A stretch of 10,682 nt of DNA, taken from IMG/VR virus record IMGVR_UViG_2541047502_000022, positions 1 to 10,682 of that record, one strand, 5' to 3'. Origin of the DNA: a virus (taxonomy: Duplodnaviria; Heunggongvirae; Uroviricota; Caudoviricetes). Positions 1,587 to 10,682 of the stretch are shown here, in pieces. Position numbers and translations under genes: made by a program. Positions within the stretch are counted from its first letter, which is position 1. Each line of letters starts with the position of its first letter. Below the pieces are notes generated by a model. It was not told the origin of the DNA, did not search any database, and saw nothing but the letters and a program-made list of their open reading frames with translations.

Positions 1587-1857
1587 AGGCGAAAAAGCGT
1601 ACGGATTTATAAGTAGCTGATTTTTAATGTGTTACTGGTTTTTTATACACTAGCGAATCACTCTTTAAAGAGCGAGAAAAAAGGCATGGAACAATATTTT
1701 ATGCCTTTGTATTAACATGAATTTAAAAGATTTTATTCTTACTTTTTCATTTTCTGTAAATCATACATCCTCAGTATTTGCCATTCATCACTCTAGCGGG
1801 AACAATACGACACAATAAGACACCTGATGACTCTTTAAGAAACGAAAGGGGGCAATA

Positions 1858-3048: not shown

Positions 3049-3253
3049 TCTGTCACTTACTGACCTTAACCGCATTCAGTTTCGTGAGAAATTCACAGGG
3101 CAGCTACTGGTCAATGTGGATAAAGGTCGCGTGGTGTGTAATTACCACTTACCAGATGAAGCAATTGTCGCCACAAGGGAATCATTACAGGAAATCACAA
3201 AACGTGCCGGAATGATTAACACGAATATTCAGGGGATGCTTTATGCACAATAA
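3041..3253 (+). CDS. Hypothetical protein (70 aa)
   Basis: ATG 3041 with a strong RBS AGGAGG (3029-3034). Overlaps the upstream gene stop and the downstream start (ATGCACAATAA). No recognisable motif. Confidence 0.6.
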   Translation: MINLSLTDLNRIQFREKFTGQLLVNVDKGRVVCNYHLPDEAIVATRESLQEITKRAGMINTNIQGMLYAQ

Positions 3254-3707
3254 AACCACACCGGACGCAGCCGCCGAAGCCATCAAAACGCTGATGCACG
3301 CGCTGATTGATATTTCTGTTATCGCGGACAGGGCACATAAGCACGCCACCAGCGAAACAGAATATGCCGGTGCTTTCGTTCCTCACTCACTGGCTGTCAT
3401 GCAATTTAGTGCTGATACGGCGCTGAATGAGGCCAAAGCTATCCTGATTGCTGATTGTGAAAATGGGGGGGTTATGCGTGATGATCGTTTTAATTCCCTG
3501 AAACAGGAATTTTCCGGCGTTCCTGATGATGCGGCTGATGCGCTTTCGTCAATGCCAGAACTTATTAGAGCGGCTTTTTTCTTACTTTCCACGAGAGAAT
3601 ATAAATCAACGGGGCTTGATGTACTGAATATCGCCGCCGATTATGCGGAATATGTGGCAGAGGCGCGTTATAGAAGAAAATTTCCTGAGGATGTAAGCCA
3701 TGCGTGA
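3243..3707 (+). CDS. Hypothetical protein (154 aa)
   Basis: ATG overlaps the previous stop (translational coupling). Acidic, helix-rich composition; no motif recognised. Confidence 0.65.
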   Translation: MHNKTTPDAAAEAIKTLMHALIDISVIADRAHKHATSETEYAGAFVPHSLAVMQFSADTALNEAKAILIADCENGGVMRDDRFNSLKQEFSGVPDDAADALSSMPELIRAAFFLLSTREYKSTGLDVLNIAADYAEYVAEARYRRKFPEDVSHA

Positions 3708-3938: not shown

Positions 3939-4238
3939 ATGAAACTTAAATATTCTGGCTTAACTGCCAGTGGCAACACTCACCCTAAATTTACGCGCGG
4001 TGATATTTACCGCGACCAGTACGGCGGCACGGTAATGATTAAGGGCGTGGAAGAACGGCGCGTAACCTACCGCCGTGAAGGTTACGAATATGATTGCGTG
4101 ATGCCTGTTTATCAGTTCCGGCGTGATTTTTCTCTGGTACAGACCGCGCCGCATAACGTGCCCACCAGCAACGCCAGGGCACGGGCAAACATCCAGAAGC
4201 TGAAAACCATGGTTAACGGATTCAGGGGCAAGAAATGA
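3939..4238 (+). CDS. Hypothetical protein (99 aa)
   Basis: RBS GGAGA 7 nt upstream; its stop overlaps the helicase start (ATGA). No confident motif. Confidence 0.6.
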   Translation: MKLKYSGLTASGNTHPKFTRGDIYRDQYGGTVMIKGVEERRVTYRREGYEYDCVMPVYQFRRDFSLVQTAPHNVPTSNARARANIQKLKTMVNGFRGKK

Positions 4239-5635
4239 AAAGCGCACCGAACTTAAAAAAACAGCCTTACGACAAGATGACCGAAGTCATTATTTTTGCG
4301 GGTAGTGATGCCTGGGCACATGCGAAACAGTGGCAGGAACAGGACGGGCGACTGGCTGGCGATAATGTGCCTCCCGTTGTGCTGGCTGATGATCAACTGG
4401 ATGAACTGGCAGAACTGAGAATCATCGACGAGGGGCGCTATTGTGTCCGGCTGTACAAGGCAGGCCACATCAGGCCATCAAATATTAATGCCATTGCGCA
4501 CAAGCTGGCGGCGGCGGGTGTAACTGATGCGAATTATTACCCCGAAGGGATGCACAGCCATATGCGGGAGAACTGGCGCGAATACCTGGAACGGGTGCGC
4601 GGGAAAGAGCCGGCGGAAGAAAAAAACCACCAGCGAAAAACCACGCTACCGATGAGCGTTGGATCTACCGGATACGACACGCAACTGGATTACGTGGTTA
4701 AGGGGATTATTCCGGCGGTATCGCTATGCAGCATATACGGGGCTAGCGGGTCCTATAAATCATTCCTTGCCGGATCGTGGGCGTGCCATGTTGCCACTGG
4801 TCGCCAGTGGGGAGGCCGCAGGGTTGCACATGGTGCGGTTCTCTATGTGGTTGGTGAAGGCGGTATAGGTGTTCCGCGTCGTGTAAAAGCCTGGGAGGTT
4901 GTGCACGATGAGCAGGTGAAAAATCTGTATCTGGTAAACCGCCCCATCTTTCCGGCTGCCCCGCTTGATGTTGATGAAATGGTTATCGCTGCCCGTCAGG
5001 TGGAGCGGGAAACGGGTAAACCTGTACGCATGATTATTCTGGATACGCTGGCGCGTTGCTTTGGTGGGAATGATGAAAATGATTCCCGTGATATGGGGGC
5101 GTTTATCCGTGGTTGTGACGAACTGAAACGACGCACAGGGGCCACGGTGCTGGTGGTTCACCATTCCGGCAAGGATGAGACGAAAGGCGCGCGCGGTTCC
5201 AGTGCATTTCGTGCTTCGCTGGATGCTGAATACCGGATACGCAGGGAGGACGCAGGAAGCGAAGCGCTGGTTATCTCATGCACCAAAATGAAGGACGCGG
5301 AGGAACTCAAAGAAGCCGCATATGACTTACGCGTGGTGGAGCTTTTTACCGACGCTGACGGTGAATTAATCACGTTGCTGGTGGTGGTGGATGATCCGCG
5401 CCCTCCTGTTGAACTGGAGCGCATCGAGGAGGCAGGGAACAAGACGGAAAACCATACCGCGCTATGGGGGTGCATCCGTTCACGCACACAGAACGGCGAC
5501 AAGTGCACGATCCCGCTGTTACGTGATGACATGAAAAAGCTGGGGTATGAAATGAAAAACTTCCGGCGCTGGCTGTACAAGCTGGAAAAAGATGGGGTTA
5601 TTCGTATCGATGGGGATGATGTAGCGCCGCTATAA
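4235..5635 (+). CDS. Replicative helicase-like ATPase (RepA / AAA_25 RecA-fold family), candidate island replication initiator
   Basis: 466 aa. P-loop YGASGSYKSFLAGSWACHVATG (Walker A), hydrophobic stretch plus Asp MIILDTLARCF (Walker B), and VVHHSGKD, typical of RepA-like hexameric helicases. The N-terminal ~140 aa are uncharacterised. An iteron cluster follows immediately. Confidence 0.8.
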   Translation: MKSAPNLKKQPYDKMTEVIIFAGSDAWAHAKQWQEQDGRLAGDNVPPVVLADDQLDELAELRIIDEGRYCVRLYKAGHIRPSNINAIAHKLAAAGVTDANYYPEGMHSHMRENWREYLERVRGKEPAEEKNHQRKTTLPMSVGSTGYDTQLDYVVKGIIPAVSLCSIYGASGSYKSFLAGSWACHVATGRQWGGRRVAHGAVLYVVGEGGIGVPRRVKAWEVVHDEQVKNLYLVNRPIFPAAPLDVDEMVIAARQVERETGKPVRMIILDTLARCFGGNDENDSRDMGAFIRGCDELKRRTGATVLVVHHSGKDETKGARGSSAFRASLDAEYRIRREDAGSEALVISCTKMKDAEELKEAAYDLRVVELFTDADGELITLLVVVDDPRPPVELERIEEAGNKTENHTALWGCIRSRTQNGDKCTIPLLRDDMKKLGYEMKNFRRWLYKLEKDGVIRIDGDDVAPL

Positions 5636-5835: not shown

Positions 5836-6087
5836 ATGACCCAAAAACGCAGAGACAGAACAGAGCCAAAATATAAAGCGTTAGACATGACTGAGCACAC
5901 CTTAAAGGTGGCAATCAGAACGATAGACCGCCACACGCGGGAAGGATACGCGAAGGAACATCCCGACCTGATAAGCGCATTCATGACCACGGCGGCGGCA
6001 AACTTTGCCACGCTGACAGAACGGGAGATTGCCGAAGCGGAACAGGTAACAACCATCAACGTTAAAACCGGAGAGGTGGAATTATGA
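5836..6087 (+). CDS. Hypothetical protein (83 aa)
   Basis: ORF 5806-6087. ATG 5836 is preferred (RBS GAGAGG 5821-5826); GTG 5806 lies inside the iterons. Its stop overlaps the ssb start (ATGA). Confidence 0.5.
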   Translation: MTQKRRDRTEPKYKALDMTEHTLKVAIRTIDRHTREGYAKEHPDLISAFMTTAAANFATLTEREIAEAEQVTTINVKTGEVEL

Positions 6088-6494
6088 CGGCACAGATAGC
6101 CGCTTACGGGCGGCTGGTGGACGACCCGCAGGTAAAACAGACCAGCAAGGGCACACCGATGACGCTGGCGCGTATGGCGGTATCTTTGCCATGCAGCCAG
6201 GCACAGGACGGACAGGCGACGTTATGGTTATCGGTCATCGCATTTGGCAAACAGGCCGGCTTCCTGGCTAAACATCAAAAAGGCGATGTTGCCAGCGTAT
6301 CCGGCACGATGCAGGTAAGCCAGTGGACCGGACAGAACGGAGAAACGCGGCAGGGCTGGCAGGTTATCGCAGACAGCGTAATCAGTGCCCGCGCGGCACG
6401 TCCAGGCGGGAACAGACGCAAAACCACAGGCACACAGGGTAATCAGCCACCAGCGGGAGGCGATGACCCTTACGGTGATGATATTTCGTTCTGA
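6084..6494 (+). CDS. ssb: Single-stranded DNA-binding protein
   Basis: 136 aa. OB-fold pattern (AAYGRLVDDPQVKQTSKGTPMTLARMAVSL...LWLSVIAFGKQAGFLAKHQKGDVASVSG...QWTGQNGETRQGWQVIAD), a Gly/Pro/Gln-rich linker, and an acidic C-terminal tip DDPYGDDISF like the SSB tail. Confidence 0.8.
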   Translation: MTAQIAAYGRLVDDPQVKQTSKGTPMTLARMAVSLPCSQAQDGQATLWLSVIAFGKQAGFLAKHQKGDVASVSGTMQVSQWTGQNGETRQGWQVIADSVISARAARPGGNRRKTTGTQGNQPPAGGDDPYGDDISF

Positions 6495-6504
6495 GGGGGT
6501 GACG

Positions 6505-6777
6505 ATGGTACATGACCGCATAGCGGAGGAACTGGAGGCGAAAGGCTTTTACCGGAGGGCGGCGGCGCGATGGGGTGAAGTCATGCAGCTGGTGGAGACA
6601 GACAAGGAACGGCATCACATCACGATGCGACGGCTGGAATGTTCAAGGAAGGCACAGAGGGCACCGGAGCCGCCGGATAATTTCGGAGACCTGAAAAAGG
6701 CAGTCGATCGCACTTATGCCGAAATGGGTATAGATGGTGCTGGTGATGAAATATGGCGCAATTACCAGGACAGCTAA
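6505..6777 (+). CDS. PerC-like transcriptional regulator (putative)
   Basis: ORF 6385-6777; likely start ATG 6505 with RBS GAGGGGG. The N-terminal motif AEELEAKGFYRRAAARWGEVM resembles the PerC/Pch family as I recall it; unverified. Confidence 0.55.
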   Translation: MVHDRIAEELEAKGFYRRAAARWGEVMQLVETDKERHHITMRRLECSRKAQRAPEPPDNFGDLKKAVDRTYAEMGIDGAGDEIWRNYQDS

Positions 6778-6903: not shown

Positions 6904-7128
6904 ATGCCGATGAAATTTGATGAGATATTAAAACAGCGTGATAAATACCATGCTGACAACATGGAGACGATGAGCATCAATGATTACCGCGCATTCCTGG
7001 AGACGGGCGCACTGATTGAAAAGGATCAGCATGGTTTTGTGAGATGTGCTCTATCCGGTGAAATGCTGGCGGTAAATCCTGAACAGATAGATGCATTGAT
7101 AGAATTTCTGAAAGAGATCAGAGACTGA
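6904..7128 (+). CDS. Hypothetical protein (74 aa)
   Basis: RBS GAGGA upstream of ATG 6904; followed by two tandem terminators. No motif recognised. Confidence 0.6.
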   Translation: MPMKFDEILKQRDKYHADNMETMSINDYRAFLETGALIEKDQHGFVRCALSGEMLAVNPEQIDALIEFLKEIRD

Positions 7129-7147: not shown

Positions 7148-7170
7148 AGCCGGAGCAATCCGGCTTTTTT
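7148..7170 (+). terminator. Rho-independent terminator, second copy of the same hairpin
   Basis: AGCCGGA, GCAA loop, TCCGGCT, then six T. Same stem as at 6785 and 9422, one change in the loop. Confidence 0.7.
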
Positions 7171-7182
7171 GCGCCCAAAAAA

Positions 7183-7218
7183 AGCCCGATAAGGTCAGAG
7201 GGTTCTTATCGGGCTTTT
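7183..7218. terminator. Bidirectional terminator-like hairpin (11-bp perfect stem)
   Basis: AGCCCGATAAG (7183-7193), 11-nt loop, CTTATCGGGCT (7205-7215), flanked by a 7-A run upstream and TTTT downstream. Confidence 0.6.
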
Positions 7219-7295
7219 GCATATGAGGTTTTTGGATGCACTGGCGTTCGTGATCGGGATAATCATTTCATAATTTGCAACATAACTCAATATCA

Positions 7296-7323
7296 TTGCA
7301 TAAAATGCAATTCTGATTATAAT
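7296..7323 (+). promoter_or_regulatory. Candidate sigma70 promoter of the capsid operon
   Basis: TTGCAT (7296-7301), 16-nt spacer, perfect TATAAT (7318-7323). The -35 lies within the short palindrome TTGCATaaaATGCAA. Confidence 0.4.
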
Positions 7324-7352
7324 CATAACTGGATAAACATCCAGTTATGATT
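7321..7352. promoter_or_regulatory. 13-bp perfect inverted repeat, candidate operator of the capsid operon
   Basis: AATCATAACTGGA (7321-7333) and TCCAGTTATGATT (7340-7352) with a 6-bp spacer, overlapping the -10 and transcription start region. Confidence 0.5.
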
Positions 7353-7379
7353 TTTTTAGTCGAAGAGGAATTTCTTACT

Positions 7380-7586
7380 ATGGCTGAAGAGAAAAAAAGC
7401 GGTGTTTCGGTGTACATAAGCCCCGAAATCGTGGAGGTGCTCAAGCAGCGCCACAAAAAAAACTATGAAGCTGGCGTTGCGGCTGGACTGGATCCGCTGA
7501 TGACGCCGGAGCCGTCGATAGGTTCACTTGTACGCTCTTATTTACTTGCGGCGCTTGGGATGCATAAAAATTATGGGGGTGAATAA
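7380..7586 (+). CDS. Hypothetical small protein (68 aa), possibly RHH-like, first gene of the capsid operon
   Basis: ATG 7380 with RBS AAGAGGA (7363-7369); ORF-track start 7347 lies inside the operator palindrome. GVSVYISPEIVEVLKQRHKK suggests a beta-strand followed by a helix. Its stop overlaps the capsid gene start (TAATG). Confidence 0.55.
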   Translation: MAEEKKSGVSVYISPEIVEVLKQRHKKNYEAGVAAGLDPLMTPEPSIGSLVRSYLLAALGMHKNYGGE

Positions 7587-8641
7587 TGGCAGGCAAAGCA
7601 ACGGCACTTAACACTAACCAGCTTTTCATGTACCTGAATCGCGGGGATATTGCGGATTTTAAATTCAGCCCTCTGTTTACCACGCTGTTTTTCCCGAACG
7701 TGGCGACATTCAGCACGCAAAACATCATGCTGGATACCCTGGACATTGAAGAAGTCACCATGTCGGCGTTTTGTTCGCCTATGGTGGGTAGCCAGGTTCA
7801 GCGCGATAAAGGGTACGAAACCAGCACAATCAAACCTGGCTACATGAAGCCAAAGCACGAAATCGATCCAACGAAAACCATCATGCGCATGGCTGGAGAA
7901 GATCCGGCACAGCTTAACGACCCTACCTATCGCCGTATGCGCCTGATTACTGGCAACATGCGCCGCCAGATAAACGCCATTAAGGCACGCGTGGAATGGC
8001 TGGCGGTGAATGCGGTAACGACCGGAAAAAACATCATTGAGGGCGAAGGCATAGAACGCTATGAAATCGACTGGAAAATACCGGAAAACTGCATCATAGA
8101 GCAGGCCAAGGGTAAAAAATGGTCCGAGCAGGATAAAGACATGCACGACCCAATCTATGACATCGAGCTTTATGCTGATCAGGCTGGTTGCCCCGCAAAC
8201 GTCATGATTATGGGCGCTGAGGTATGGCGCACATTACGCAGCTTTAAAAAATTCCGTGAGCTGTACGATCTTTCCCGTGGTTCAGAATCCGCCGCCGAAC
8301 TGGCCTGTAAAAACCTGGGCGAAGTGGTGAGCTTTAAAGGCTATCTTGGTGATCTGGCCCTTATCGTCTATTCCGGCAAATACACTGACAGCGATGGTAC
8401 CGAAAAATATTTCCTTGAGCCTGATTTGCTGGTCCTGGGTAACACCAACAATAAAGGGCTGGTGGCCTATGGTGCGATAATGGATCAGGAAGCGGTAAGA
8501 ACGGGCGCAACACAAAACATGTTTTACCCGAAAAACTGGATTGAGGACGGCGATCCGGCGATTGAGTACGTGCAGACACACAGTGCACCGCAGCCGGTAC
8601 CGGCAGATATTCGCAAATTTGTTACCGTCAAAATTGGTTAA
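7586..8641 (+). CDS. Major capsid protein, lambda gpE-like
   Basis: 351 aa. Shared with remembered lambda gpE (341 aa): PGYMKPKHE, YRRMRLI, SFKKFRELYDLSRGSESAAELACKNLGEVVSFKGYLGDLALIVYSGKY, VLGNTN, YPKNWIEDGDPA and the C-terminal VTVKI. RBS GGGGTG upstream. Confidence 0.9.
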   Translation: MAGKATALNTNQLFMYLNRGDIADFKFSPLFTTLFFPNVATFSTQNIMLDTLDIEEVTMSAFCSPMVGSQVQRDKGYETSTIKPGYMKPKHEIDPTKTIMRMAGEDPAQLNDPTYRRMRLITGNMRRQINAIKARVEWLAVNAVTTGKNIIEGEGIERYEIDWKIPENCIIEQAKGKKWSEQDKDMHDPIYDIELYADQAGCPANVMIMGAEVWRTLRSFKKFRELYDLSRGSESAAELACKNLGEVVSFKGYLGDLALIVYSGKYTDSDGTEKYFLEPDLLVLGNTNNKGLVAYGAIMDQEAVRTGATQNMFYPKNWIEDGDPAIEYVQTHSAPQPVPADIRKFVTVKIG

Positions 8642-8653
8642 CGGGGGGATTCT

Positions 8654-8989
8654 ATGGACACTCCATACATTGAGTTATTTGCAGGCAGTCAGCAGGTATC
8701 CACGACGTTGGTACATTTTGCCGCTGATGCTGGCGTTATTCAGGAATTTACCCCGCTGATGCTGGCAGACAATGGCGAGTTTAAGCCGTGGGATGGTCAG
8801 GAATCTGGCAAGGCTGTTTATCTGACCTCGTACCCTGTGGACACGTCAAAGCAGAAATCAGCACAGTGTTACAAGACGGGGATATTCAATATTGCCGCCG
8901 TTAACTGGCCTGAGAGCGTCGACACCGATGCGAAAAAATGCGCCGCCTTTGCGGGTTCCGGCGTATCCGTTCAGCCGCTGGCCCGATAA
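8654..8989 (+). CDS. Head decoration protein, lambda gpD-like
   Basis: 111 aa. Shared with remembered lambda gpD (110 aa): TPLMLA, WDG, YKTGIF, WPE, AAFAGSG. RBS GGGGGG upstream. Confidence 0.85.
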   Translation: MDTPYIELFAGSQQVSTTLVHFAADAGVIQEFTPLMLADNGEFKPWDGQESGKAVYLTSYPVDTSKQKSAQCYKTGIFNIAAVNWPESVDTDAKKCAAFAGSGVSVQPLAR

Positions 8990-9001
8990 GCAGGGGGAAC
9001 G

Positions 9002-9415
9002 ATGGCAACGAATGAAAGCATCATGACGCTACCGCTGGCGAGTAAATTTAAAGTCGAAGCGCGGGCAATGGCTGACAGAGGTTTATCAACCTATGAGGCC
9101 GTATATCAACTAAACAAACTGGAAGAGCAGGACAAGCCGTGCGCTGATGCGATTATGGCGCTTCATGAGCATAAAGACTATCAGCCGCTGTTGCGTGCAA
9201 TGGCAAACGTGCCTTGTATCGATGTTGGTACGGCTAAAAGCATCCTTAGCATGACCATAGAGCAGGAACGTCCGAAGGTTGCGCCGGAACTTACCGCAGC
9301 CTTTGAAAACTTTATGGACATGCACAGCCCGCAAGCCGTATCAGCTGGCATGGCATACGATGGCAGAAACCAGGGCGATGACGGCGACATCGATCGCATA
9401 CTGAAAACCATCTGA
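9002..9415 (+). CDS. Hypothetical protein (137 aa) between the decoration gene and cos
   Basis: RBS AGGGGGAA upstream, followed by a terminator. No motif recognised. Confidence 0.65.
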   Translation: MATNESIMTLPLASKFKVEARAMADRGLSTYEAVYQLNKLEEQDKPCADAIMALHEHKDYQPLLRAMANVPCIDVGTAKSILSMTIEQERPKVAPELTAAFENFMDMHSPQAVSAGMAYDGRNQGDDGDIDRILKTI

Positions 9416-9419
9416 GACA

Positions 9420-9443
9420 AGGCCGGAGAAATCCGGCTTTTTT
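9420..9443 (+). terminator. Rho-independent terminator, third copy of the GCCGGAGAAATCCGGC hairpin
   Basis: GGCCGGA, GAAA loop, TCCGGC, then six T. The 16-mer at 9422-9437 is identical to that at 6785-6800. Confidence 0.7.
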
Positions 9444-9620
9444 ACGGGTCCTTCCTGGAATTATGGCCCGTTACGGGGCGGCGACCTCGCGGATTTTCGC
9501 TATTTATGAGCCTTTTCAGGGTGGTGGTGGTGGTTTTGTTGTTTGATCTATCTTTATGAATGAAAAGGGAAAGATGCAAGCAATACACCAACCTGAAGCA
9601 GTAATTAAGTTGGTGTATTA
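9444..9620 (+). other. Lambda-type cos site (cosQ-like, cosN, divergent cosB)
   Basis: 9444-9500 reads ACGGGTCCTT...GTTACG GGGCGGCGACCT CGCGGATTTTCGCTATTTATGAG. The 12-mer at 9476-9487 is identical to the lambda cohesive end as I remember it, and both flanks are near-identical to the lambda right end and left end. Downstream (9500-9620) diverges from lambda cosB and carries a (GGT)4 run (9519-9533) and an 11-bp inverted repeat AATACACCAAC / GTTGGTGTATT (9584-9594 / 9609-9619) abutting the Nu1-like start. Confidence 0.75.
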
Positions 9621-10163
9621 ATGAAATCTCATCTGATGAACAAAAAAAACATGGCGAAAAGCTGCCGTGTAAGTGCGACAGCGTTCGACAAGTGGGGAGT
9701 AACTCCCGTTGAGCGTAAAGGCCGTGAGGCGTTTTATGATGTTGCCAGCGTGATAGAAAATAGGGTTAACAATGCAATTAGCCAGCTTATAAACGACAAA
9801 GGCGAGATTGACGATGATGAACTTTTACGAGTCAGGATCAGATTACTGACAGCACAGGCAGAGGCGCAGGAACTTAAAAACGATCGCGATCGCGGTGACG
9901 TGATTGATACTGAGTTTTGCCTGTACGCGCTTTCAAAGCTGGCGAGTCAGATTTCATCAATCATGGACAGCCTCCCGCTTACTATGCAAAGGAGCTTCCC
10001 ACAGATTACCCCCGCCATGCTGGACAGGCTTAAAAGGGAAGTGGTTAAAGCCTGTAATGCCAGTGCCAGAGTTGCCGACAACCTCCCACAGATACTGGCT
10101 GATTACTTGAAAGAAACAACCGGAAACGTACCGGAAAAGTTGCTACAGAAGAAAGGCGAGTAA
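9621..10163 (+). CDS. Terminase small subunit, lambda Nu1-like
   Basis: 180 aa. The C-terminal two-thirds align with remembered lambda Nu1 (LTAQAEAQELKNDRDRGDVIDTEFCLYALSKLASQISSIMDSLPLTMQRSFPQI...LKREVVKACN versus lambda RLTRAQADAQELKNARDSAEVVETAFCTFVLSRIAGEIASILDGLPLSVQRRFPEL...LKRDIIKAMN). The N-terminal DNA-binding region is divergent. Alternative start ATG 9636. No terminase large-subunit gene follows. Confidence 0.85.
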   Translation: MKSHLMNKKNMAKSCRVSATAFDKWGVTPVERKGREAFYDVASVIENRVNNAISQLINDKGEIDDDELLRVRIRLLTAQAEAQELKNDRDRGDVIDTEFCLYALSKLASQISSIMDSLPLTMQRSFPQITPAMLDRLKREVVKACNASARVADNLPQILADYLKETTGNVPEKLLQKKGE

Positions 10164-10272: not shown

Positions 10273-10682
10273 GTAAGCGTACAGCGAGGGCCGTATTGAC
10301 GGGGATGTGTTATTCAGCTGGCAGTGCTATGCGCCACGGAAGCAGTTCGCTGACCCGGTTGACCGGCCAGTCTGCTATGACGCCAAGCACATGGCGAAGG
10401 TAGCTTTCTGGATCCACGTCATTCAGTTTGCACGTCCCGATCAGGCTGTACAGTAGCGCTCCCCGCTCACCACCATGATCAGAGCCGAAGAACAGGAAGT
10501 TTTTACGACCCAGACTGACCGCCCGCAGGGCATTTTCAGCGATGTTGTTGTCGATTTCCACCCAGCCATCGTTCGCATAGTACGTCAGTGCCGGCCACTG
10601 GTTAAGTGCGTACGCGAACGCCTTCGCCAACTCTGAGTGTCGCGACAGGGTCTTCATCTTTTCACGCAACCAGCTTTCCAGG
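10273..10682 (-). mobile_element. IS66-family insertion sequence, partial (one end plus transposase 3' region), continues beyond the window
   Basis: GTAAGCG at 10273-10279 resembles IS66-family termini, and the adjacent minus-strand ORF encodes an IS66 TnpC C-terminus. The element runs off the window edge. Confidence 0.65.
10310..10682 (-). CDS. IS66-family transposase, C-terminal part (5' end lies outside the window)
   Basis: The translation [75 protein letters not shown] matches the conserved IS66 TnpC C-terminus. The reading frame stays open to the window edge upstream of the ORF-track Met at 10669. Confidence 0.8.

Follow-up and report, generated by a model that had tools for sequence, protein, structure and literature searches.

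A LexA-box-like inverted repeat overlaps the predicted capsid-operon promoter of a phage-inducible chromosomal island from Escherichia coli

The DNA analysed here, referred to throughout as the window, is the whole 10,682-nt stretch of IMG/VR record IMGVR_UViG_2541047502_000022. Its gene set and its 99.8% identity to Escherichia coli 042 mark the window out as a phage-inducible chromosomal island (PICI) of the EcCI042 / O-island 51 type, one belonging to a family that comprises the EcCICFT073, EcCI042 and O-island 51 / CP-933C PICIs (PMC6092414; PMC3378721). The region in question, 7262–7357, lies at the head of the operon for the island's capsid and packaging proteins, upstream of a small open reading frame (ORF), and combines a candidate promoter with a perfect inverted repeat. 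Across the feature region, identity is 99.8% with E. coli 042 and 99.6% with O157:H7 genomes, and related copies were found in 602 of 5,426 complete E. coli genomes. Its elements, and those on either side, are as follows.

7148..7170, + strand: canonical intrinsic terminator ending the gene for a 74-aa protein, AGCCGGAGCAATCCGGCT plus a T run, from the terminator scan
7178..7222, no strand assigned: second terminator-like hairpin, with a 14-bp G+C-rich stem and an 11-nt loop, an A run before and a T run after
7262..7280, + strand: upstream copy of a 19-nt direct repeat, ATCATTTCATAATTTGCAA, centred near −65, a candidate regulator site
7292..7310, + strand: downstream copy of the direct repeat, ATCATTGCATAAAATGCAA, holding the palindrome TTGCAT-AAA-ATGCAA (7296–7310)
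7296–7301, + strand: −35-like hexamer TTGCAT, three of six matches to TTGACA
7318–7323, + strand: −10 hexamer TATAAT, six of six matches, spacer 16 nt
7321..7352, no strand assigned: perfect inverted repeat, arms AATCATAACTGGAT (7321–7334) and ATCCAGTTATGATT (7339–7352) of 14 bp, loop 7335–7338 (4 nt)
7326..7328, left arm, between the −10 and the LexA-like core: hypervariable trinucleotide (TAA, GGA, GAG, GAT, GAA, TGA or CAA in relatives)
7327..7346, no strand assigned: core resembling a LexA (SOS) box, AACTGGATAAACATCCAGTT, CTG-N10-CAG, heterology index 6.06
7351–7357, + strand: T7 run after the repeat, fitting, with the hairpin, an intrinsic terminator pattern; also kept in clades lacking the hairpin
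7363..7370, + strand: Shine-Dalgarno region AAGAGGAA of the 68-aa gene, within the conserved block TTTTTAGTCRAAGAGGAAT
7380–7586, + strand: 68-aa protein (phrog_3255, function unknown), first gene of the operon, start as annotated in E. coli 042
7586..10163, + strand: remainder of the operon after the 68-aa gene

The first point to note is that the arrangement of TTGCAT, 16 nt and TATAAT directly before an inverted repeat, described in a first-pass annotation of this DNA, is present in the sequence, and that the −35 does sit, as stated there, within a second short palindrome, which covers the −35 and half of the spacer. The 16 nt spacer falls within the 16–18 nt of sigma-70 promoters. The promoter had been called near-consensus, which is true of the −10 and not of the −35, and it is owing to the poor −35 that an automated promoter scan omits the capsid promoter, placing it below threshold. 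The inverted repeat is perfect, as claimed, although its arms are 14 bp long rather than 13 bp; it overlaps the final three bases of the −10, and the T7 run follows it. At the head of the operon (small ORF, capsid, decoration protein, cos and Nu1-like gene) it is the leading promoter candidate, and the position of the −10 would set the start point at ∼7328–7331. Two alternatives that would put the hairpin in the transcript were considered and rejected: an upstream promoter TTCATA-18-TATCAT (7267–7296), the −10 hexamer of which is not conserved, and an alternative −10, TAAAAT (7301–7306), which is not conserved among relatives. A search for IHF, Fur, lambda CII (TTGC-N6-TTGC) and P2 Ogr (TGT-N12-ACA) site patterns gave nothing convincing, the sole CRP-like hit was one half-match with two mismatches over the −10, and an Rfam scan of the whole window at E ≤ 1 returned zero matches.

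Relatives were drawn from three sets: BLAST hits from complete E. coli genomes; contigs with capsid homologues of 51–68% identity (Salmonella, Edwardsiella, Lelliottia, Serratia, Cedecea and others); and two IMG/VR pattern scans, anchored respectively on the −35/−10 block and on the upstream repeat alone. The unselected alignment shows little or no change in the hairpin at 7178–7222, in either of the TTGCA-type sites or in the −10. TATAAT is invariant in the BLAST-derived alignment, which was not selected on it, and is replaced by TAAAAT in two other clades; the −35 palindrome is likewise invariant or nearly so in alignments not selected on it. The hairpin at 7178–7222, invariant in 10 of 10 aligned islands with the capsid-forming PICI included, forms the left edge of the conserved promoter block. 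It is the second of two tandem terminator-like hairpins (7148–7222) upstream of the promoter, and given the A run and T run at its flanks it is possibly bidirectional. Only Salmonella and the main E. coli clade have the inverted repeat; in Edwardsiella and the L016/L017 clade of E. coli no hairpin reaches significance, but the T run and the block AGTCAAAGAGGAAT are kept. Searches further afield gave little: the promoter block, sought in 50,697 phage records as possible mimicry of lambdoid late promoters, produced chance hits only, and in species-representative genomes the capsid protein search was empty and the DNA pattern search yielded only chance hits in metagenome-assembled genomes of Firmicutes.

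In the capsid-forming PICI, locus L008, an HK97-type capsid, protease and portal replace the lambda-type module, and the promoter block is shared up to window position 7332, beyond which the sequences diverge. The same block thus stands before different capsid modules, making the promoter and its twin sites a junction between modules that different island types share. In L008 (E. coli JNEC-KY176, 3122–3317), the homologous promoter is TTGCGA-16-TATAAT, scoring 10/12, and is followed by a ∼160-nt leader which ends in a terminator-like hairpin (3279–3308) and T7 directly before the start codon of the HK97-type capsid gene. This arrangement suggests attenuation or antitermination control in capsid-forming PICIs.

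A pattern check at the repeat picked out CTGGATAAACATCCAG as CTG-N10-CAG. The core, AACTGGATAAACATCCAGTT, matches the LexA consensus TACTGTATATATATACAGTA at 14 of 20 positions, with CTG and CAG both intact. Its heterology index of 6.06 (5.16 with an unsymmetrised matrix) lies within the range of 1.8–12.2 for 18 documented boxes, and allelic variants of the core give values of 6.4–10.2. It is the best LexA-like site in the window, at a level reached by none of 100 shuffles (best shuffle 9.65), and across 940 kb of fetched loci the sites scoring 9 or better are all this promoter site, bar three elsewhere in other islands. The half-sites CTGGAT/ATCCAG and their 4-nt central spacing are shared by the window core and the ruvA box. 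Among main-clade copies retrieved without selecting on the core, CTGGAT and AT(C/A)CAG are fixed, the variation falling at LexA-box positions 1–2, 9–12 and 15 and in the flanks. A change from ATCCAG to ATACAG loses a hairpin pair, yet brings the site closer to the LexA consensus (6.42). Variation of this kind is better matched by a LexA box than by a plain stem. The core starts 4 nt past the invariant TATAAT and lies across the predicted start point, the position occupied by LexA boxes at the sulA, lexA and colicin promoters.

The strongest support for a LexA site comes from the relatives' boxes. The L107 relative (67% capsid identity) has the box TGCTGGATGTTTATCCAGTT (index 6.18), 17 nt further from the −10 and with the outer arms absent, and Lelliottia L018 (58% capsid identity) has a canonical box, CACTGTTTTTTCATACAGTT (6.85). 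In each case the box starts 45 nt ahead of the small ORF, and the region folds no better than its shuffles do. In Salmonella L013, a LexA-like box, GACTGGATGAAAATCCAGTA (7.45), is found at the corresponding place.

The direct repeat is a feature that the first-pass annotation did not mention; its two copies are 30 bp apart, two matches being found against 0.04 expected. The upstream copy is kept in E. coli and Salmonella islands and in the capsid-forming PICI, and Salmonella L013, Edwardsiella L014 and the L016/L017 clade of E. coli all have TTGCA-N5-TGCAA sites at the same 16-nt distance from TATAAT or TAAAAT. In these alignments, the twin TTGCA-type sites are the most widely conserved elements, ahead of the downstream repeat. 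No gene of the island is shared by all carriers, so a host or helper protein is the likelier candidate for the factor acting at the twin sites. An 83-aa gene beside ssb is found widely among E. coli islands and was undetected in the Salmonella L013 and L107 relatives.

With a length of 14 bp, the inverted repeat is the longest perfect one in the window (loops of 3–10 nt), and this length was reached in 0 of 200 window shuffles and in 1 of 200 random 10.7-kb sequences at the local 32% G+C. The perfect repeat is one allele, present in ∼30 of 101 related copies; most of the others have one or two mismatches, nearly all at 7326–7328. Over 471 nt, the sole difference between O157:H7 and the window is TA to GG at 7326–7327, and an intermediate GAA allele exists. 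Among 30 distinct sequences, three stem pairs have changed on both sides (C-G to T-A at 7324/7349, T-A to G-C at 7326/7347 and A-T to G-C at 7327/7346), 13 sequences have a G-A mismatch at 7326/7347, and most one-sided stem changes are G-U compatible on the + strand. The stem covariation score of this set exceeds 500 of 500 shuffles, a result that related sequences can give without structure, and in a smaller sequence set covariation was not significant. The compensatory pairs may have arisen through selection for a hairpin, or else by templated correction of a quasi-palindrome. As RNA, the repeat forms a hairpin of −17.7 kcal/mol (z −7.6), with −13.8 for the O157 allele and −16.5 for Salmonella. 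The stable hairpin followed by a U run (U5–7) of an intrinsic terminator is present, and the G+C-rich stem is not, G-C pairs making up 4 of the 14 in the stem and one of the six nearest the U run.

From these comparisons we tentatively read 7262–7357 as a regulated sigma-70 promoter bearing an operator for host LexA across the start site and a second regulator at the twin sites, a reading to which we would give slightly less than an even chance. Several results weigh against it. The sole expression dataset found is a single study of one allele at one time point: in EDL933 (GGA allele) after 2 h with ciprofloxacin, CP-933C capsid mRNA changed −1.8-fold (PMC11125564 Table S1), lexA was up 6.5-fold and the island primase up 5.3-fold in the same RNA-seq, and the island capsid protein was seen whether or not the drug was present (PMC11125564). 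The induction by DNA damage expected under LexA control was thus not seen for the island capsid gene in these data, and a literature search by locus tags found no SOS expression data for the island. Nor was a mapped start or LexA binding found for the capsid promoter in searchable papers. A LexA-like box is absent at this promoter from the E. coli L016/L017 clade, Edwardsiella and the clade of 51–55% capsid identity, and also from L105, L106, L108 and the capsid-forming PICI. The outer arms AATCAT / ATGATT (6–7 bp) and the three compensatory pairs are unexplained by LexA. Finally, the matrix behind the heterology index was rebuilt from 18 E. coli LexA boxes (PMC3009722 Table 4) and symmetrised, and is not the published original. 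As the EDL933 capsid transcript does not rise while lexA does, loss of LexA is insufficient for induction under those conditions; either LexA has no action here, or the weak −35 makes the promoter need a second input. With capsid protein present in uninduced EDL933 and its mRNA not rising with the drug, the capsid operon does not appear to be held off tightly.

The palindrome might instead act as RNA, with the 14-bp hairpin and U7 serving as an intrinsic terminator or insulator. It would then halt transcription arriving from the replication, perC and 74-aa genes, or starting at a weak promoter upstream of 7321, leaving the capsid module to be read from its own promoter only, or by polymerase made resistant through an AlpA- or Q-type antiterminator. 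The terminator scan does list the repeat (14 pairs, 4-nt loop, T run), and its stable fold, the three stem pairs changed on both sides with covariation above every shuffle, and the mostly G-U compatible one-sided changes are all in keeping with such a role, as is the terminator-like hairpin and T7 just before the capsid ATG in the capsid-forming PICI with the same promoter. There is also the precedent of the Pseudomonas aeruginosa AlpA antiterminator, which has a DNA site between −35 and −10 and terminators before the first gene (PMC7969949). However, the left arm overlaps the invariant TATAAT, and a transcript from there would carry just the 5-bp inner stem, and conservation of possible −10 sequences farther upstream is poor. 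The stem is rich in A-U pairs at its base, with the low G-C content given above, and the 170 nt upstream already contain two canonical terminators. In L107 and L018 the LexA-like core persists with no significant fold, and clades lacking the hairpin still have the T run; the G-A mismatch at 7326/7347 is frequent, related sequences can outscore the shuffles in the absence of structure, and AlpA is undetectable in many islands with the element. Overall, we consider an RNA role for the repeat unlikely, although it deserves some weight.

The first-pass annotation favoured a dimeric regulator binding across the promoter, with the PerC-like protein, AlpA, an RHH protein or the 68-aa protein as candidates. 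It was right in so far as a dyad-symmetric operator overlaps the capsid-operon promoter, with its symmetry over the predicted start; it is probably wrong on the regulator, the core fitting a host LexA box and none of PerC, AlpA, the 74-aa protein and the 68-aa protein tracking the site by co-occurrence in ∼85 loci. We think it rather improbable that the 32-bp palindrome serves as operator for a dimeric or tetrameric regulator encoded by the island, whether the 68-aa product acting on itself, PerC, AlpA or the 74-aa protein, which would keep the capsid operon off or switch it on. Besides the dyad symmetry over the start site, such a regulator would account for the conservation in sequence of both arms across islands of E. 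coli and Salmonella with capsids sharing just 68% identity, and for a small conserved first gene in the E. coli, Salmonella, Edwardsiella and Lelliottia relatives, a layout typical of autoregulators. Yet PerC, found in ∼60% of the loci, is missing from ∼40% of islands with the same promoter and repeat, the 74-aa gene, found in ∼30%, is missing from ∼70%, and AlpA is undetectable or merely 49–68% identical in many islands with the same repeat; nor does the alpA promoter share the conserved capsid-promoter motifs across relatives. The 68-aa protein comes as two alleles, ∼68% identical, with the same repeat and without tracking the repeat variants, and the L016/L017 and L014 clades keep a 68-aa homologue without the repeat. 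Its model matches no DNA-binding fold: the protein has no Pfam hit, and its AlphaFold model (pLDDT 72.6, two helices) is without a PDB match at E < 1, which is uninformative rather than exclusionary. The palindrome might, alternatively, have no regulatory role, being a quasi-palindrome kept and repeatedly perfected by template-switch mutation, its likeness to a LexA box incidental and its inner 5-bp stem at most a 5′-terminal hairpin stabilising the mRNA. Imperfect alleles do predominate, close strains form a step series (TAA, GAA, GGA), the compensating changes are adjacent pairs that copy the opposite arm (GGA / TCC in L029 and L082), and the operon is expressed uninduced in EDL933. We nevertheless find this very doubtful, given that CTG-N10-CAG is fixed in all main-clade copies retrieved unselected while its neighbours vary, that L107 and L018 have LexA-like boxes of differing sequence at the same place, and that sites this good are nearly absent from the 940 kb of related DNA.

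The other genes of the island, and its cosN, are given below.

243–1493, + strand: integrase
1858–2046, + strand: AlpA
3939–4238, + strand: DUF4222 protein
4235–5635, + strand: RepA-type helicase
6084–6494, + strand: SSB
6505–6777, + strand: PerC
6904–7128, + strand: 74-aa protein
7586–8641, + strand: lambda E-like major capsid protein
8654–8989, + strand: gpD-like decoration protein
9002–9415, + strand: 137-aa protein
9476–9487: exact lambda-type cosN, GGGCGGCGACCT, between the 137-aa gene and the Nu1/Rpp-like gene
9621–10163, + strand: Nu1/Rpp-like small-terminase homologue

The stop of the 68-aa gene overlaps the capsid start codon. The cosN at 9476–9487 puts the island's cos site within the operon that the capsid promoter drives, and the idea that the promoter and repeat feature was itself a cos site was rejected once the exact cosN had been located there. 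The 68-aa gene has two alleles (∼99% and ∼68% identical to that of the window), which are freely mixed with capsid, repeat and replication-module variants, implying frequent recombination at this junction. In the 137-aa protein, which may be a Nu3-like scaffold, residues 46–119 show similarity to the C-terminal end of head maturation protease / scaffold proteins from phages (phrog_53, E 4.7e-9). In the clade of 51–55% capsid identity (L019–L024), the small ORF before the capsid gene is missing, and an AlpA-domain protein of 114–145 aa (∼4900–5300 per locus) follows the gpD-like gene, where the window has the 137-aa gene. The C-terminal fragment of an IS66-family transposase adjoins the right end of the island (10310–10669, − strand); in E. 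coli 042, other small genes come after the position of the Nu1-like gene instead. In EcCI-type islands, AlpA is the helper-induced activator (PMC6092414) and the Nu1-like Rpp protein redirects packaging (PMC6739421). We found no description of the transcription of a Gram-negative PICI capsid/packaging module in the searchable literature, which covers AlpA induction, Rpp and cos.

An AlpA site shared between the capsid and alpA promoters was considered and rejected: TTKCATNNNNTGYAA has a single match upstream of alpA (1745–1759), and other variants of the alpA promoter, found with an unchanged capsid promoter, no longer have this match. The spacer between int and alpA contains LexA-like sites of its own, TACTGGTTTTTTATACACTA (index 8.2, with CAC in place of CAG) and TACTGGATATGCGAACAGAT (12.1), at window positions 1633–1652 and 1522–1541; alpA expression is reported not to be SOS-dependent (PMC6092414). 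At 1545–1590, the same spacer has tandem short repeats, GCAACAATG / GCAACAATG / GGAACAACT / CGAACAAGA, possibly arm-type or excisionase binding sites. In other islands, strong LexA-like boxes, TACTGGATTAAAATACAGTA (index 4.2) and AACTGTACAAAAAACCAGTA (7.9), lie several kb upstream of the capsid promoter (L088 8812; L084 1241 / L085 10316), hints of SOS inputs elsewhere in some PICIs.

Returning to the reading with LexA at the start site, a consensus −10 combined with a weak −35 means that the promoter probably depends on, or is modulated by, a protein at the twin TTGCA-N5-TGCAA-type sites, which near −35 and −65 would bind a postulated second regulator. A LexA dimer on 7327–7346, if it binds there as predicted, would presumably hinder initiation, and DNA damage would relieve this block, the same signal inducing the helper prophage. 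The outer arms AATCAT / ATGATT may add a hairpin function. A broader version, which we think speculative and on present evidence improbable, is a two-key switch common to classical and capsid-forming enterobacterial PICIs, with LexA at the start site in some clades and a host or helper factor at the twin sites. Such a helper-phage or host factor, for which the CytR-like half-sites are one lead, may tell the satellite when to make its capsid and packaging proteins, and in a variant of the scheme the full hairpin with its U run may also be a terminator passed only by antiterminated polymerase. The twin sites, which capsid-forming PICIs also have, point to a second regulator, which could be the real timing signal. 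If LexA does act at the core, the allelic series at 7326–7328 and the clades without a box are natural variants for testing the weight of LexA control. Since the island carries virulence regulators (PerC/PchE, with RgdR in relatives), the logic of its induction bears on the biology of enterohaemorrhagic E. coli.

Among known systems, the twin sites resemble CytR operators, which are TGCAA-N2-3-TTGCA or octamers of the type GTTGCATT (PMC3454398), in using (A/G)TTGCAT-type half-sites. This is a resemblance only; the island half-sites are reversed (TTGCA-N5-TGCAA), and flanking CRP sites were not found. The PalpB promoter of P. aeruginosa, with its AlpA (PMC7969949), offers a second parallel: an element-encoded regulator of the AlpA family, a conserved DNA element between −35 and −10, and a hairpin and U run before the first gene of the target operon. 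In the island, however, the hairpin overlaps the −10, so that transcripts from that promoter cannot be terminated by it, the conserved motif bears no relation to GGGACG-N5-GGTA, and many islands with this promoter are without detectable AlpA.

In sequence, the core resembles E. coli LexA boxes, including those of ruvA (CGCTGGATATCTATCCAGCA) and cho (CACTGGATAGATAACCAGCA) (PMC3009722 Table 4), which have the same CTG-N10-CAG frame and beside which the heterology index of the island site is comparable or better. The ruvAB and cho genes are chromosomal repair genes with demonstrated LexA control, whereas the island site lies inside a 32-bp palindrome of a mobile element. In function, a counterpart would be operon I of the pathogenicity islands of Staphylococcus aureus (SaPIs), a packaging operon reported to be under LexA control (Ubeda 2007, as cited in PMC6092414). 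Both are packaging / capsid-morphogenesis operons of satellites with a LexA site at the promoter, actual or predicted, tied to the SOS signal that induces the helper prophage. They differ in that the hosts belong to different phyla with different LexA consensus sequences and the operons are not homologous, and in that LexA binding at the E. coli island promoter is a prediction, the EDL933 dataset being without SOS induction. If the LexA reading is true, E. coli islands have reached the same solution as the staphylococcal SaPIs, SOS control of the packaging operon, and our reading would place the site, with confidence falling a little below the halfway mark, among LexA-controlled satellite packaging operons as a predicted member.

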